Part shown: positions 18,046 to 24,157 of the stretch, in pieces
How positions within the stretch are numbered: the stretch's first letter is position 1
How the letters are laid out: every line of letters starts with the position of its first letter
NCBI GenBank assembly: GCA_016713725.1
Contig: JADJOO010000020.1
Location: 4,192 to 68,191 of the forward strand
Direction of reading: 5' to 3'
DNA length: 64,000 nucleotides
Origin: Pseudomonadota bacterium
GTDB lineage: Bacteria > Pseudomonadota > Gammaproteobacteria > Steroidobacterales > Steroidobacteraceae
Translations under genes and position numbers: made by a program
Notes under the pieces: model-generated
Told to the model about the DNA's origin: nothing
Seen by the model: the letters and a program-made list of their open reading frames with translations, nothing else
Database searches by the model: none

Positions 18046-18197
18046 GCGGCTACGCCGCTACTTCCGCGTCTCCGTATCAGCCCGGCCAACCTGTGCAGCC
18101 TGGCTGCGCGCTTCACTATCCGCCGGCGACACTTTGACGATGCTTTCGTCGTCGCTGTTCCGCGCGCCGGTAGGACTCAGCCCGAGGAGTAGCCCCT

Positions 18198-18326
18198 GGC
18201 GATCGATCCAGTCGTTCTTCCCGAGCTTGGAAAGGCAGACACGCGCCCGGGAAGAACGACTGGATCGATCGCCTGCGGCACGGCGCCTGGGCTCGTCCTC
18301 GGCGCGCCGAAAACTGCGCACGGCGC
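18198..18326 (-). repeat. Two-hairpin repeat element, copy A (3' of the minus-strand TBDR gene)
   Basis: Perfect 26-bp stem (18198-18223 / 18248-18273) around a loop containing GCGCGTGTCTGCCTTTCCAAGCT (sense orientation), plus a 5' module at 18284-18326. The same loop and 5' module recur at 24171-24292. Confidence 0.7.
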
Positions 18327-18372
18327 ACGGTGCGTCGAGATGTGGCAACCCCAGCGTATGAGTCCGGTGGGC

Positions 18373-20463
18373 CTAAAACCTTACGGTCGCGGCAACCCGC
18401 AGCGTGCGCGGCTCCGCAGGATGGAAGTGAATGTCGGCGACGGGCTGCGATTCGCTGGGCAGCTGCGACTCGTAGAAGTAGCTGATGTCGCTGGCTTCCG
18501 CATCGAACAGGTTGAAGACCGACGCCATCACGCTCAGGCGTGGCGAGAAGCGGTAGCCGGCCTGCGCATTCACGGTCGAGGTCGAGTGCGAGCGTACGCT
18601 GTTGTCCTCGATCAGCGGGGCCGGGCCGAAGTAACGCCAGCGGGCGCCACCGAACCAGCCCAAGTCGCGCTGGATGCTGAGGCCGACCGACACGACGGTC
18701 TCCACGGCACCGGGAATGTAGTTGCCCGCGGGGTCGTACTCGGTGAACCGGGCATGCGACCACGAGTAGTCCGCGTCCAGGATCACCGTTTCGAACGGGG
18801 TCCAGTACGCGCCGAGTTCGACGCCATAGCGCCGGGTTGCGCGGCTTGGCTCGGTGATGCCGCCGTCACCGACGAACAGCAGTTCCGAGTCGATGTCCAG
18901 GTTCCACAAGGCGGCCGTCAACTGCAGGCCGGGCACAGCCGCGGTGCGGACGCCGATTTCCGTGCCGGTGGCCGGCACGATTGGATCGACGGGATCGGCC
19001 TGGGTAACTCCGTCCGTGGGATCGACGCGGATCGTCGTGCCGCGGGCGTCGTTGGTGTGAAAGCCGCGACCCGCGTTCAGGAAGACCTCCGTCTCCGCCC
19101 ACGGCCCCAGCACGACCGTCAGTTTCGGGCTCGCGATCGAATCGGTCTCGTCGCCGGAGTTGGCCGGGAGATCGCTGTCGACCGAGAAATCCAGGTAGTC
19201 GAAGCGGAGTCCCGCCTCCGTGCGCAGCCAGTCCGTCCAGCGCTGGTCATGGATGACGTAGGCCGAGTACTGCGCCTGGCGGACGTCGTCCTTGCGGATC
19301 GTCTCGAACCGCTCGCGGGCGAAGGTCCGGTACAAGGCGACCGGTGTGATGTCGTCCATGCGCAGTTCGGCGCCGGCGCGCAGTGAGCCGTCGAGCCCGT
19401 TCAACGAAGCCGGCAAGTCGTACTCGAAGTGACCGCCGTACACGCGGCGACTGTCGTACTGCTCGAACTGGTCGCCGTCGACCGGGTCGAGCGCGTAGGT
19501 GAAGTTCGAGAACAGGTCGAGGTGGTAGTCGATGGCGTAGGCCAGCGCCGACCAGCCGCGCCCGTCGTGCCGGGACCACGCGTCGAGCGACAGGCTGTAG
19601 CGATGCGACTCGCCGCCCGTGGTGTCGTCCACGTGACCGAAGCGCGGGATCAACCCGGCATCCACGGCCCGCTGCGGAACCTGGTCGGTGCTGTCCCAGC
19701 TGCCGTCGTAGCCCATGCCCGTGACGGCGAACCCGGCCTCGGCAGTGCCGCGGCTGTACTTGATGACCCCGCTGGTCTTCTGGAAATCCTCGGGCAGTGT
19801 CCAGGGCCCGTCGGTCTGCGACCAGTCGAGGCCCAGCAGCAGCGTCCCGCCCGCCACCTGCGGCGAGGCGCTGGCGAACAGCCGATAGTAGTTGTCCTCG
19901 CCGACCGTCAGGCCCAGCGTTGGCGCGCCGCTGTCGCGGATGTAGGAGATGCGCGCCGCGCCGGCCGCCGAGAAGTTTCCTTCTTCAGCAAAGTAGGGAC
20001 CCTTGCGGTATTGCACGGTATCCACCAGCTCGTGGACCAGGAAGTTGATGTCGGCGTACCCCTGGCCATGGGCGTGGGTCGGCATGTTCACCGGCACGCC
20101 GTCCACGTAGCTCGCAAAGTCGGTGCCATGGTCGAGGTTGAAGCCGCGCAGGAAATACTGGTTCGCCTTGCCGTCGCCACTGTGCTGCGTGACAACCAGC
20201 CCGGGTACGACCTCGAGCACTTCGCCGGGTCGCAGGACCGGCCGGCCCTGCAGCTGCGCACTCGTGACGATGCCTTCGCTCGCGGCCCGCGACTCGCCGA
20301 TCAGCCCGATGCGCTGGGCAGTGACCACGATCTCCTCGAGCGGGGTGCCGGTGGGAATGCCGGAGGCCAGGGCGCTGCCCGGCAATGCCAGGATGACGAG
20401 CGCTGCGGCGGTTGCCAGCGACGGTTGGCGCTGATTGCGTGGCATGGGCAGGCTGTCCATCAT
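18373..20463 (-). CDS. TonB-dependent receptor, probably nickel-regulated
   Basis: Signal peptide, plug (EEIVVTAQR, NQYFLRGFNLDHGTD) and terminal ...ATVRF. A NikR-type operator lies in its promoter. Confidence 0.9.
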   Translation of the reverse strand: MMDSLPMPRNQRQPSLATAAALVILALPGSALASGIPTGTPLEEIVVTAQRIGLIGESRAASEGIVTSAQLQGRPVLRPGEVLEVVPGLVVTQHSGDGKANQYFLRGFNLDHGTDFASYVDGVPVNMPTHAHGQGYADINFLVHELVDTVQYRKGPYFAEEGNFSAAGAARISYIRDSGAPTLGLTVGEDNYYRLFASASPQVAGGTLLLGLDWSQTDGPWTLPEDFQKTSGVIKYSRGTAEAGFAVTGMGYDGSWDSTDQVPQRAVDAGLIPRFGHVDDTTGGESHRYSLSLDAWSRHDGRGWSALAYAIDYHLDLFSNFTYALDPVDGDQFEQYDSRRVYGGHFEYDLPASLNGLDGSLRAGAELRMDDITPVALYRTFARERFETIRKDDVRQAQYSAYVIHDQRWTDWLRTEAGLRFDYLDFSVDSDLPANSGDETDSIASPKLTVVLGPWAETEVFLNAGRGFHTNDARGTTIRVDPTDGVTQADPVDPIVPATGTEIGVRTAAVPGLQLTAALWNLDIDSELLFVGDGGITEPSRATRRYGVELGAYWTPFETVILDADYSWSHARFTEYDPAGNYIPGAVETVVSVGLSIQRDLGWFGGARWRYFGPAPLIEDNSVRSHSTSTVNAQAGYRFSPRLSVMASVFNLFDAEASDISYFYESQLPSESQPVADIHFHPAEPRTLRVAATVRF

Positions 20464-20504
20464 GAACTCCCGGCTTCAACCGACGGGCGGTGCTCCGGGT
20501 CCGG

Positions 20505-20533
20505 AGACTATCCGGCGGTATGATGTTTATCAA
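20505..20533 (-). promoter_or_regulatory. Candidate sigma70 promoter of the TBDR gene (TTGATA-N17-TAGTCT on the minus strand)
   Basis: The -35 hexamer (20528-20533) lies inside the NikR-type palindrome. The -10 hexamer is at 20505-20510. Confidence 0.4.
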
Positions 20534-20545
20534 ATAAGTGCATAC
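20518..20545. promoter_or_regulatory. NikR operator-like palindrome GTATGA-N16-GCATAC
   Basis: One mismatch to the E. coli NikR operator GTATGA-N16-TCATAC. The arms extend as GGTATG...CATACC. It sits in the divergent TBDR/nikR intergenic region. Confidence 0.65.
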
Positions 20546-20571
20546 CCTAACCCGGCCGTGGAGGCCTCCAG

Positions 20572-21145
20572 ATGCAACGCACGACGATCACGCTCGACGA
20601 CGACTTGATGGAGCGGCTGGATGAGTTCATGGCGGATCGCCGCTACGCCAACCGCAGCGAGGCCATTCGCGACCTGGTGCGCGCCGGCCTCGAGCAGTCG
20701 ACCCTCGATGGCGCAGCCGACGCGCAGTGCCTCGGGGCGGCCATCTACGTCTTCGATCACAACGCCAGGGAGCTCGCGAGCCGGCTCACCCACGCAGCGC
20801 ACGATCATCACGACCTGTCGGTCGCGACGCTGCACGCACCTCGATCACGACAGCTGCATGGAAGTCAACGTCCTGCGCGGGCAAGTCGGCGATGTTCGTC
20901 ACTACGCCGATCACGTCATTGCGGAGCGTGGTGTCCGGCATGGGCGCCTCGTGCTGGTGCCTGCTGAATTTTCGACGGAAACCCATGCGCATGGCGGTGC
21001 GAAGCTTTCGCGACACTCGCATTTGCACGTCAAGCGATCCCTAGGCGGGGCTTCGCCTCATTGCTTGAATGGCCAGAGATCTCGTCGCAACGATCAAACG
21101 GGCGGACTGCGGATAACCGCAGGTCGCGGACCGCGCCCGCCCTGA
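20572..21145 (+). pseudogene. nikR: Nickel-responsive regulator NikR, one frameshift near 20835; 3' end uncertain
   Basis: RHH N-terminus MQRTTITLDDDLMERLDEF...NRSEAIRDLVR. The C-domain HDLSVATLH / HLDHDSCMEVNVLRGQVGDVRHYADHVIAERGVRHGRL continues in the frame of ORF 20621. Confidence 0.8.
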
Positions 21146-21216
21146 CCTAGACTTTCTTCACGAACGCCCGCTGGACACAAAGTCGCAGGACCCACCTCTG
21201 GGTCACGCTGCTGCTG

Positions 21217-21567
21217 TTGCCCGCCCTGGCGTGTCGCATGCTGGTGCCGCCTGGTTTCATGCCGGGCACCGGTGCAGATCATTCGCCCACGATGCAGATG
21301 TGCCACGGCGCCGGGCCGCTGCCGCAGGGCGCGCAATCGCCCGCAAAGGATGATGGACAGCGGCCTGGGAGTCCTGCGCATCACGAATCGCCTTGCGTCT
21401 TTGCGGCCGCCGGCACGGCTGCGCCACCACCGATCACGTTGGCGGTTCTGGATGGTCCCGCAACGCCAGACGCCATTCCGTCGCCACCGGACCTCGCCGT
21501 TGTCTTCCGGACACCGCATCGCGCCAACCCGCCCAGGGCGCCTCCCACCATCGTCAGCCCCGCCTAG
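21217..21567 (+). CDS. DUF2946-family protein (copper-uptake associated)
   Basis: LLLLPALACRMLVPPGFMP...MQMCH...HHESPCVF pattern, directly upstream of an OprC-like TBDR. The start codon is unclear (TTG 21217). Confidence 0.55.
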   Translation: MPALACRMLVPPGFMPGTGADHSPTMQMCHGAGPLPQGAQSPAKDDGQRPGSPAHHESPCVFAAAGTAAPPPITLAVLDGPATPDAIPSPPDLAVVFRTPHRANPPRAPPTIVSPA

Positions 21568-21815
21568 GGCTCGACTGCCCGTTTGAGGCTGGGCGCCTGC
21601 ATTGGCGCCCCGGCCTCGGCCCGCCGGGCATCCGCTGTCCTGCCCGTAGTTCCATCTCGACCGCTGCACACATGAGCGGCGGTCGTGGGCTGCGCATGGC
21701 ATCGCGATGAATCGGTGACAGCCAACCGCAACGACACCGGGCGGTGCTTGAAGGCGACCCAGCGGGGCCTCGGCAAAGCTCCCACTCCTTGATTTTGATT
21801 TTGGAGTCTGAAGAC

Positions 21816-24157
21816 ATGCGACCTCGTCCGATTGCAGTTACCGTGTTCCCTTGGCCCTCTACGCCGCCCAGGGTGTGGCGGCGGATAGTGCCCCCAACCT
21901 CGAAGAAATCATGGTCACGGCCCGGCGGATTCTCACGCCCGGCCTCGGCGCCATCGGCCTCGATGGCGCCGAGATTGCCCGCAAACGCGCCCGCACCAGC
22001 GACACCGCCAGTCTGCTCGCGGGCCTTCCAGGGGTCAGCGTCTATGGCGCCGGAGGAGTTTCCAGTCTGCCGGTCATCCGCGGCCTCGCGGACGACCGCC
22101 TGCGCACGCAGGTGGACGGCATGGACCTCGTGGCCGCCTGTCCCAACCACATGAACTCACCACTCTCCTATATCGACCCCACGGCCGTGGCCAGCGCCGA
22201 CGTTTACGCTGGCGTCACGCCGGTGAGCGTCGGCGGCGACAGCATCGGCGGCAGCATCGTGGTGCGTTCTGCGGACCCCGCGTTCGCGCAGCCTGGCTCT
22301 CATCTTGTGCAGGGTGAAGCCGGCACGTTCTATCGCGGCAACGGTGATGGATGGGGCGGAAATCTCTCCGGCACGTTCGCTACGGAAACCTTCAGCCTCA
22401 ACTACACCGGCGCCTTCGCCCAGGCCGACAACTACCAGGCTGGCGACAGCTTCAAGCACTACACGTTCACCGGTCGGGCGGGCCACACGCTACCCACCGC
22501 CGAAGTCGGATCCACGGCCTACGACTCCCGCAACCAGACAGTCCGGCTTGCATGGCGCAGTGGCAGTCACCTGCTGGATTTCAGTTACGGCTTCCAGGAC
22601 ATCCCGTACGAGCTCTATGCCAACCAGCGCATGGACATGGCGGAGAACCAGAGCGACCGGTTCAACCTTGCCTACACCGGCGGTCTCGACTGGGGAACCC
22701 TGCAGGCGCGGGTGTACTACCAGCACACCGAGCACGAGATGGACTTCGGCGACGACAAGCGCTTCTGGTACGGACCGGGACAGCCGCCAAGCGGGTCAGG
22801 CGGGGATACAGCCCTGAACGGCTCACCCTGCTCGCCGATCTCCGGCTCGATGATGGTGAGCGGCCAGATTGTCGGTTGCGCTGCCGGCATGCCGATGATG
22901 ACTGACGGCAGGAATACGGGAGTCTCCGTCAGCGCGGCGATCCCGCTGGCCGAGCAGAGTCTGCTGCGCGTCGGTGGCGAGTATCAGGAGAATCGGCTGG
23001 ACGACTGGTGGCCGCCCTCCGGTGCGGGCATGTGGCCGTACGATTTCCTGAACCTGAACGACGGACAGCGTGACCGCTACGCCGCTTATGGTGAATGGGA
23101 GATTGGCAACGAACGCTGGACGCATATCCTGGGCGCCCGCTTTGAAACCGTGAACATGAGTGCAGTCCCGGTTCACGGCTACAACCTCGACTCGTATCCG
23201 ACCAGCGGCGTTGGCGGCATGGGCAACCAGACGCGAGACGCGGCGCTGTTCAACGCCAGCTCACGCGGCAAGACGGACGACAACTGGGACCTCTCATGGA
23301 TCGGCCGCTTCGTACCGGGCGCGACTCAGGCTTACGAGATCGGCCTGGCGCAGAAGACCCGCTCGCCCAACCTGTATGAGCGCTACACCTGGTCCACGTG
23401 GCAGATGGCGGCGTTCATGAACAACTTCGTCGGCGACGGCAACGGCTACGTGGGGGACGTGAACCTGAAGCCGGAGGTGGCTCGCACAGTGAGCCTCACG
23501 GCCAACTGGCACGATGCCGATTCCGAGCAATGGAGTGCCAAACTGACACCGTACTACACGGACGTGCAGGACTACATCGACGCGGTGCAATGGGATGCCG
23601 TGACGAACACGCGCCGCGCCGTGCCCGTGGTCGGCAACTTTACCGTGCTCCGGTACGCCAACCAGTCCGCCCAACTCTACGGCGCAGACCTTGCGGCTGA
23701 CTACCGGCTGACAGACACGACCGATTACGGGAAGTTCTCAGCCCAGCTCGTGGCGAGCTACACCAGGGGCAGGAACGAGGATACGGATGGCAACCTCTAC
23801 AACATCATGCCGCTGAACGCCAAGCTGGCTTTCACGCAAGAACTCGGCTCGTGGCGCAATGCCCTGGAGGGCGAATTCGTGGCGGCGAAGGATGACGTCT
23901 CCGCGGTGCGCAACGAAATGCAGACCGCGGGCTACGGTCTTGCGCACCTGCGCAGCCGCTACGAGCGAGCCACCTGGAGCGTGGAGGTCGGCATCGAGAA
24001 CCTGTTCGACCGTTACTACGAGCTGCCGCTGGGCGGCGCTTACGTCGGTCAGGGCACGACGATGACGGTCCCGCCCGTGCCCAACCAGCCGCAATGGGGC
24101 ACTCCGGTGCCCGGTGCGGGCCGTTCAATATATGCGAGCGTCAACATGAAGTTCTAA
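21816..24157 (+). CDS. OprC/NosA-like TonB-dependent copper receptor (frame break in the signal-peptide region near 21845; ORF intact from 21851)
   Basis: ATG at 21816 with GGAG upstream encodes MRPRPIAVTV... and joins LALYAAQGVAADS. Plug EEIMVTARR; CPNHM (CxxxM) and HEM (HxM) motifs; terminal ...SVNMKF. Confidence 0.8.

Follow-up and report, generated by a model that had tools for sequence, protein, structure and literature searches.

A probable NikR operator between a frameshifted nikR and a nickel-type TonB-dependent receptor gene in a Steroidobacteraceae-like gammaproteobacterium

The operator of nikABCDE that is bound by E. coli NikR has the form GTATGA-N16-TCATAC (PMC7055735). In H. pylori, FrpB4 and FecA3 are NikR-repressed receptors according to the passages on them in PMC11247825 (where Ernst 2006, Davis 2006 and Schauer 2007 are the sources) and in PMC5385501. 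Another set of receptors, namely pHCG3_081, Daro_3944, Bll6948 and RPA_4757, is listed as predicted nickel/cobalt receptors (PMC3400609); Daro_3944 and Bll6948 are marked 'Pr' in the part of PMC7142613 that deals with them, with Rodionov et al. 2006 given as source, and these two are listed as predicted nickel/cobalt receptors in PMC11247825 as well. The arrangement of nikR, NikR box and receptor gene is already known as an in-silico prediction, made by comparative genomics in 2006. The literature searched yielded no experiments on any receptor of this family. It may be noted that a preliminary description of the locus analysed here had called its transporter family uncharacterised, which is right as far as experiments go but passes over the prediction of 2006, which is listed in the three sources PMC3400609, PMC7142613 and PMC11247825.

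The locus lies in a window of 64,000 nt, by which we mean the whole stretch of DNA that was analysed; within the genome the window corresponds to C20:4192-68191. A TonB-dependent receptor gene and nikR are divergent in this window, and the gap of 108 bp between them (20464-20571) contains a palindrome which, judged by its sequence, position and conservation, is very probably a NikR operator. The features of the locus are as follows.

18373-20463, minus strand: TonB-dependent receptor gene, 696 aa, intact, with Pfam Plug and TonB_dep_Rec_b-barrel domains
20505-20510, minus strand: putative -10 hexamer of the receptor promoter, TAGTCT, separated by 17 nt from the putative -35
20518-20545, no strand assigned: probable NikR operator, with GTATGA at 20518-20523, a 16-nt AT-rich spacer and GCATAC at 20540-20545
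20528-20533, minus strand: putative -35 hexamer TTGATA of the receptor promoter, inside the operator spacer
20572-20836, plus strand: 5′ part of nikR, codons 1-88, which encodes the ribbon-helix-helix domain and enters the nickel-binding domain, followed by an orphan G
20837-21145, plus strand: 3′ part of nikR in the +1 frame, reading HLDHDSCMEV...HLHVKRS to about 21040 and then open to 21145
21217-21567, plus strand: DUF2946-like gene downstream of nikR (weak Pfam match, E 9.6e-4)
21851-24157, plus strand: second TonB-dependent receptor gene, copper (OprC/NosA)-like, with Pfam Plug and barrel domains

The letters GTATGA-N16-GCATAC at 20518-20545 were read as the preliminary description had given them, with TGTTTATCAAATAAGT as the 16-nt spacer, and its outward extension of the palindrome to GGTATG...CATACC is borne out by G20517 and C20546. 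The count of one mismatch from the E. coli box was correct too, 11 of the 12 bases being the same at exact spacing. Counted upstream from the start codons, the operator occupies 55-82 nt before the receptor ATG and 27-54 nt before that of nikR. Sites with at most one mismatch to the E. coli box are expected 0.03 times in the 64-kb window, where one is observed, and on extending the search to the genome (4.14 Mb) this same site was found alone, with no further box of at most one mismatch elsewhere. None of 2000 shuffles of the 108-bp intergenic region attained 11 of 12 matches. The operator 28-mer has an A+T content of 71% against a mean of 35% in its surroundings, and only 44 of the 63,973 28-mers in the window are as AT-rich, which agrees with the AT-rich patch noted earlier. 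When sites with two or three mismatches were considered, none in the genome adjoined the CbiM-like or HupE-like genes, and a single one, the 2-mismatch site at C6:187195, lay near a hydrogenase gene (about 4 kb from C6:181926-183494). A wider NikR regulon could not be defined from this box search of the genome, even with the sites of two to three mismatches included.

A search for the NikR family found NikR in 12 of 40 relatives. In five genomes (G004, MFD00032, G011, G022 and G014) nikR is divergent from the receptor orthologue and the box is present, and the intergenic regions of these five were aligned with that of the window, giving six box-bearing species of the genus, together with that of a seventh species, G019. 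All 12 half-site columns are 100% identical across the six box-bearing species, the operator spacer, which varies at its centre, shows 80% identity, and the intergenic flanks are 56% identical on the receptor side and 51% on the nikR side. Fixed arms with a variable spacer centre are the pattern expected for NikR, which favours a NikR site. The right arm is GCATAC in every box-bearing species of the genus as opposed to TCATAC in E. coli. In G019 the receptor is cut to a 26-aa remnant, nikR is intact and the box carries 4 mismatches.

The search of orthologous intergenic regions for the palindrome, which the preliminary description had suggested as a check, found the box kept upstream of receptor orthologues in the five other species of the genus and also outside the genus. 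Outside the genus the box is present directly upstream of the receptor without a nearby nikR at two loci (L019 and L020), between co-directional nikR and receptor genes at another (L030), and in the divergent nikR/receptor layout at L062; the divergent layout with the box is seen at L016 and L017 too. A perfect E. coli-type box lies ahead of NicO-receptor genes in Oryzomicrobium (L056/L134), and the E. coli-type box was absent from the Rhodocyclaceae loci examined. At the Dechloromonas/Azonexus loci (L102-L128 and L067) NikR begins with MERFTISLD, and many of them have an upstream palindrome GTTAGAATG-N10-CATCCTAGC instead of the E. coli-type box. At L053 a perfect GTAGGC-N16-GCCTAC is present between a type-2 nikR (MERITMSID) and the gene of a receptor that shares 91% identity with that of the window. 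Both palindromes may be variants of the NikR box, changing together with the recognition strand of the protein.

The receptor matches no named receptor family above cut-off in an NCBIfam search, and its similarity to solved structures is partial only, to YncD/PqqU and BtuB. Two scans for its family gave at least 584 and at least 598 confirmed relatives (from at least about 600 matching stretches each), and among the matches listed these belong to Steroidobacteraceae, Rhodocyclaceae, Burkholderiales and others. The receptor is 44% (44.1%) identical over 91% of its length (residues 61-696) to a receptor on pHCG3 of Afipia (Oligotropha) carboxidovorans. The receptor gene there, at 77.6-79.9 kb, and nikR are divergent and close the hox/hyp hydrogenase cluster, and the gap between them contains a 1-mismatch box, GTATGA-N16-TCATAT. 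This is the sole TonB-dependent receptor match on pHCG3 and it lies beside nikR; from its position and neighbour it is therefore very probably pHCG3_081. The identity is 49-52% to the nikR/NicO-linked Dechloromonas receptors, the gene order nikR, histidine kinase, NicO (PF03824), receptor being kept in Dechloromonas and Azonexus, and 50% to the receptor on Cupriavidus necator pHG1, whose gene (26.8-28.8 kb) lies about 4.4 kb downstream of that for the nickel/cobalt transporter HoxN. The pHG1 and pHCG3 receptors are the best plasmid matches.

Besides the window receptor, 151 family members were fetched, and in 79 of them a nikR or NicO-type permease gene was present within the 3-4 kb flank. As 72 of 152 members, about half of those fetched, have neither nearby, a link with nickel need not hold for every member. 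Across the 152 members seven histidines show no or almost no variation (at least 93% in the nikR-linked as well as the unlinked group); in the window receptor four of them are in the plug (H94, H112, H130 and H132) and three in the barrel (H469, H679 and H681). They would fit a metal or metal-chelate substrate and form a candidate metal-binding cluster. On these comparisons the receptor is a member of the predicted nickel receptor family.

With regard to the receptor promoter, the operator had been said to cover the -35 of TTGATA-N17-TAGTCT on the minus strand. Both hexamers are present as described and recur in the aligned regions. At the -35 place TTGnnn stands in the window and recurs in four of the five other box-bearing regions (TTGATA twice, TTGAAA, and TTGGGA/TTGGTA one base off) and MFD00032 has TTAAAT, while at the -10 place all six have TAnnnT (TAGTCT, TAGTCT, TAATCT, TACAGT, TAGGGT and TACAGT). 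G019, in which the box has decayed, lacks TAnnnT at this place and reads TCGAGT. This part of the claim is weakened by a sigma-70 consensus scan, which called no promoter at TTGATA-N17-TAGTCT because the -10 is poor, TAGTCT agreeing with TATAAT in just 3 of the 6 bases. The placement of the receptor promoter here is plausible, and on this placement bound NikR would lie over the -35 together with 10 of the 17 bases of the promoter spacer. For nikR no promoter was definable in the 108-bp region. The box ends about 26-27 nt before the nikR ATG, which makes autoregulation of nikR through this operator likely.

The preliminary description overlooked a break in nikR: the gene is frameshifted in the assembly, and positions 1-89 and 89-136 of the NikR model fall in different frames. 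The 5′ part matches positions 1-89 of 139 of NF002815 NikR (E 6.6e-35) and RHH_1 (E 7.6e-11), and its N-terminus, MQRTTITLDDDL, keeps Arg3, Thr5 and Thr7, the DNA-reading residues of E. coli. The 3′ part, HLDHDSCMEVNVLRG...GVRHGRLVLVP, covers positions 89-136 in the +1 frame. As a result, the nickel-binding C-terminal domain (His76, His87, His89 and Cys95) is not in one frame with the N-terminus, but all these residues are present once the frames are joined. Where the nearest relative, G004 (88% nucleotide identity), reads CTGCATGTTCACC, the window reads CTGCACG--CACC with 2 bp missing between 20836 and 20837, and the same 2-bp gap is seen against three relatives (L009 among them) and against a second copy of the block on contig C30. 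On alignment to E. coli NikR the deletion hits the codon for the valine that separates His87 from His89, both nickel ligands; it falls inside a palindrome, TGCACGTGCA. Further downstream, an extra C in a C run (TCCC vs TCC) removes the usual TAG stop of nikR. In a separate comparison of window 21044-21108 with L016:1820-2420, the nearest relative was seen to have about 540 more bases between nikR and the DUF2946 gene, and the breakpoint of this difference abuts the altered stop.

No other full NikR is present in the genome, which is 93% complete. In the nearest relative NikR is intact; it matches the E. coli protein (1Q5V) with E 1.6e-42, and Arg3, Thr5, Thr7 and the four high-affinity nickel ligands His76, His87, His89 and Cys95 are aligned; as the NikR of this clade keeps the E. 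coli-type recognition residues, recognition of GTATGA is expected. The out-of-frame part of nikR has a dN/dS of 0.05-0.11 against three comparators, showing that the frame was under selection until very recently, and an assembly error fits this value equally well. The window nikR is thus either a very recent pseudogene or mis-assembled. If the frameshift is an assembly error, the intact gene would read CTGCACGTGCACC and end with a TCC-TAG stop (window 20800-21060). Since there is no intact nikR in the genome, either this organism has lost the regulation or such an error conceals it.

The second copy, at C30:1-5214, is a receptor-nikR-DUF2946-OprC-like block with 89-93% identity to window 18233-23802. 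It lacks the 360 bp corresponding to window 20302-20661, so that 54 codons are missing from the start of the receptor gene and 30 from the start of nikR, along with all of the intergenic DNA between them, operator included. It was considered as a source of an intact nikR and rejected, the 5′ end and the operator being missing and the receptor copies shifting frame repeatedly. There are 88 gaps in 5.2 kb between C30 and the window, of which 72 are of 1 nt and 40 are of homopolymer type, and the remaining 11 kb of C30 has long intact ORFs. The gap pattern suggests a locally unpolished long-read consensus. The downstream flank of C30 is syntenic with L053, which belongs to another species of the genus. 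The block may be a second locus or decayed paralogue, or come from a co-binned strain or an unpolished contig end. A stretch of 78 bp after the receptor gene (window 18195-18272) is 94% identical to C6:177206-177283, and the homology to C30 stops inside it, at 18233.

Broken nikR alleles were seen elsewhere too. In an unrelated population a 92-aa NikR (...ATLHVRRR*), cut at the same codon, lies beside an intact 699-aa receptor in 7 contigs; the four places shown are from four different samples or assemblies (for example L179:4001-4279), and the allele was made by a deletion joining two CTGCACGTGC repeats. A third broken allele, P0002, ends after ...LSIAT. That these are three independent lesions at the His87/His89 codons, by which nikR has been recurrently inactivated in Steroidobacteraceae-like soil bacteria with the adjacent nickel-type receptor left intact, is a doubtful proposition that we put forward tentatively. 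If the lesions are real, they would point to a mutational hot spot or to selection, in soils poor in nickel, for receptor expression that is constitutive and blind to nickel.

Taking the locus as a whole, we think it probable that the palindrome is an operator of the E. coli type shared by the divergent nikR and nickel-type receptor gene, through which Ni-NikR represses the receptor. We infer the promoter positions, the repression and nickel as the substrate, the repression from the analogous cases of E. coli nik and of frpB4/fecA3 in H. pylori. The receptor gene would form a single-gene transcription unit. When cytoplasmic nickel is sufficient, the Ni(II)-loaded NikR tetramer would place its two ribbon-helix-helix dimers on GTATGA and GCATAC, so that in the receptor promoter the -35 hexamer and the greater part of the spacer would be covered, and transcription of the receptor, and probably that of nikR, would be shut off. 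At low nickel the operator would be free, the receptor would be made and nickel would be supplied to the [NiFe]-hydrogenases. The 2-bp deletion in nikR would mean that this switch has recently been lost, or that the assembly is wrong there; in the former case expression of the receptor would be constitutive. The first prediction, that nickel represses the receptor gene, is hence upheld in part, with the conserved half-sites, the box upstream of orthologous receptors and the E. coli-type NikR residues on one side, and the frameshifted nikR with no intact copy in the genome on the other.

With respect to nickel economy, the genome has three [NiFe]-hydrogenase large-subunit loci, which implies a demand for nickel. 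The large-subunit gene at C2:79277-80833 has one in-frame TAG (…GGVQ*RVKV…) and is otherwise complete (RICGVCTLVH ... DPCIACAVH). NicO and urease were not found in the genome, and the inner-membrane candidates in it are a weak HupE/UreJ match and a partial CbiM match. At the window locus there is no hydrogenase or nickel-permease gene beside the receptor. The synteny of the DUF2946 gene is kept in L016, L017 and C30, and the receptor encoded at 21851-24157 gives a partial match to the TIGR01778 copper receptor model (E 2.2e-31, below cut-off).

Other readings of the palindrome were weighed against a NikR operator that serves the receptor. TonB-dependent receptors are usually under Fur control, and together with the AT-rich spacer this would lend some colour to a chance match or to a site for another regulator such as Fur or Zur; yet the only such site in the genome, with 0.03 expected per window, adjoins nikR, and the arms are invariant across species where the spacer centre varies. 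The best match to a Fur box in the region is 11/19, attained by 7% of shuffles, and that to a Zur box is 10/23, no better than shuffles, and both were rejected as the identity of the operator. We consider a chance match or another regulator extremely improbable. It could be argued from the distances that the box is for autoregulation of nikR alone, the receptor promoter being nickel-independent and, for example, iron-controlled: the box is 27 nt from the nikR ATG vs 55 nt from that of the receptor, and in pHCG3 it is 15 nt from nikR vs 187 nt from the annotated receptor start. But this would not be expected where the box lies upstream of orthologous receptors with nikR absent from the locus or placed upstream on the same strand (L019, L020 and L030), or before the NicO-receptor operons of L056/L134, nor does it agree with the decayed box of G019, whose receptor is truncated and nikR intact, or with the poor Fur-box match given above. 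Control of nikR alone therefore seems unlikely to us, and an operator for both genes is retained as the preferred reading.

That reading must still be set against the broken nikR. The operator may be a relic, the box being present by descent, NikR being lost (the window copy frameshifted, the C30 copy beheaded) and the receptor expressed regardless of nickel. Such a loss is what the 2-bp deletion at 20836/20837, found against three relatives and the C30 copy and accompanied by a changed stop, would mean at face value, and there is no other NikR match in the 93%-complete genome. It has a precedent in the 92-aa NikR cut at the same codon beside an intact receptor in 7 contigs, and the hydrogenase large-subunit gene with an in-frame TAG is of a similar kind. 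A systematic sequencing error linked to the CACGTG motif was also considered as the cause of the deletion, but it is unsupported, as there are 1450 intact CACGTG sites (observed/expected 0.81) and the motif is not depleted genome-wide. On the other hand, the low dN/dS of the out-of-frame part argues against a relic, the extra C in nikR is a change of homopolymer length, and the 88 mostly 1-nt indels at the C30 contig end are a signature of long-read consensus noise. The closest named relatives among the matches listed, which are Microflora Danica MAGs, also count against it. On balance we regard a relic operator as a real possibility, somewhat short of an even chance, and keep nickel-dependent repression through a shared operator as the reading that we prefer.

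What is new here is a well-supported NikR site and a new clade, the Steroidobacteraceae-like soil bacteria, for a predicted nickel receptor family. The only unusual feature of the locus is the broken nikR. For annotation purposes the operator call is sound, and nikR is to be flagged as frameshifted or possibly mis-assembled. As the family has members in the tractable Cupriavidus necator H16 (pHG1) and Afipia carboxidovorans OM5 (pHCG3), TonB-dependent nickel uptake becomes testable outside Helicobacter.

On comparing the locus with known systems, E. coli NikR (structures 1Q5V and 2HZV) is close in that the half-sites agree in 11 of 12 bases with the same 16-bp spacing, and the NikR of the clade has the residues that read DNA and bind nickel in common with it; presumably the repression logic is shared as well. 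However, the target in E. coli nik is an ABC importer operon, whereas here it would be an outer-membrane TonB-dependent receptor together with nikR, the regulator gene being divergent from its target. The group of pHCG3_081, Daro_3944, Bll6948 and RPA_4757 has the same receptor family, and pHCG3 has the same divergent layout of nikR, box and receptor; the window member differs in coming from a Steroidobacteraceae-like gammaproteobacterium and in having, as assembled, a broken nikR frame. H. pylori NikR is a pleiotropic regulator, its operator has a different, AT-rich consensus, and FrpB4 and FecA3 are likened to the window receptor by their regulation alone. The shared logic would be nickel-dependent repression by NikR of a TonB-dependent outer-membrane nickel uptake protein, for which FrpB4 and FecA3 are the only experimentally shown case.
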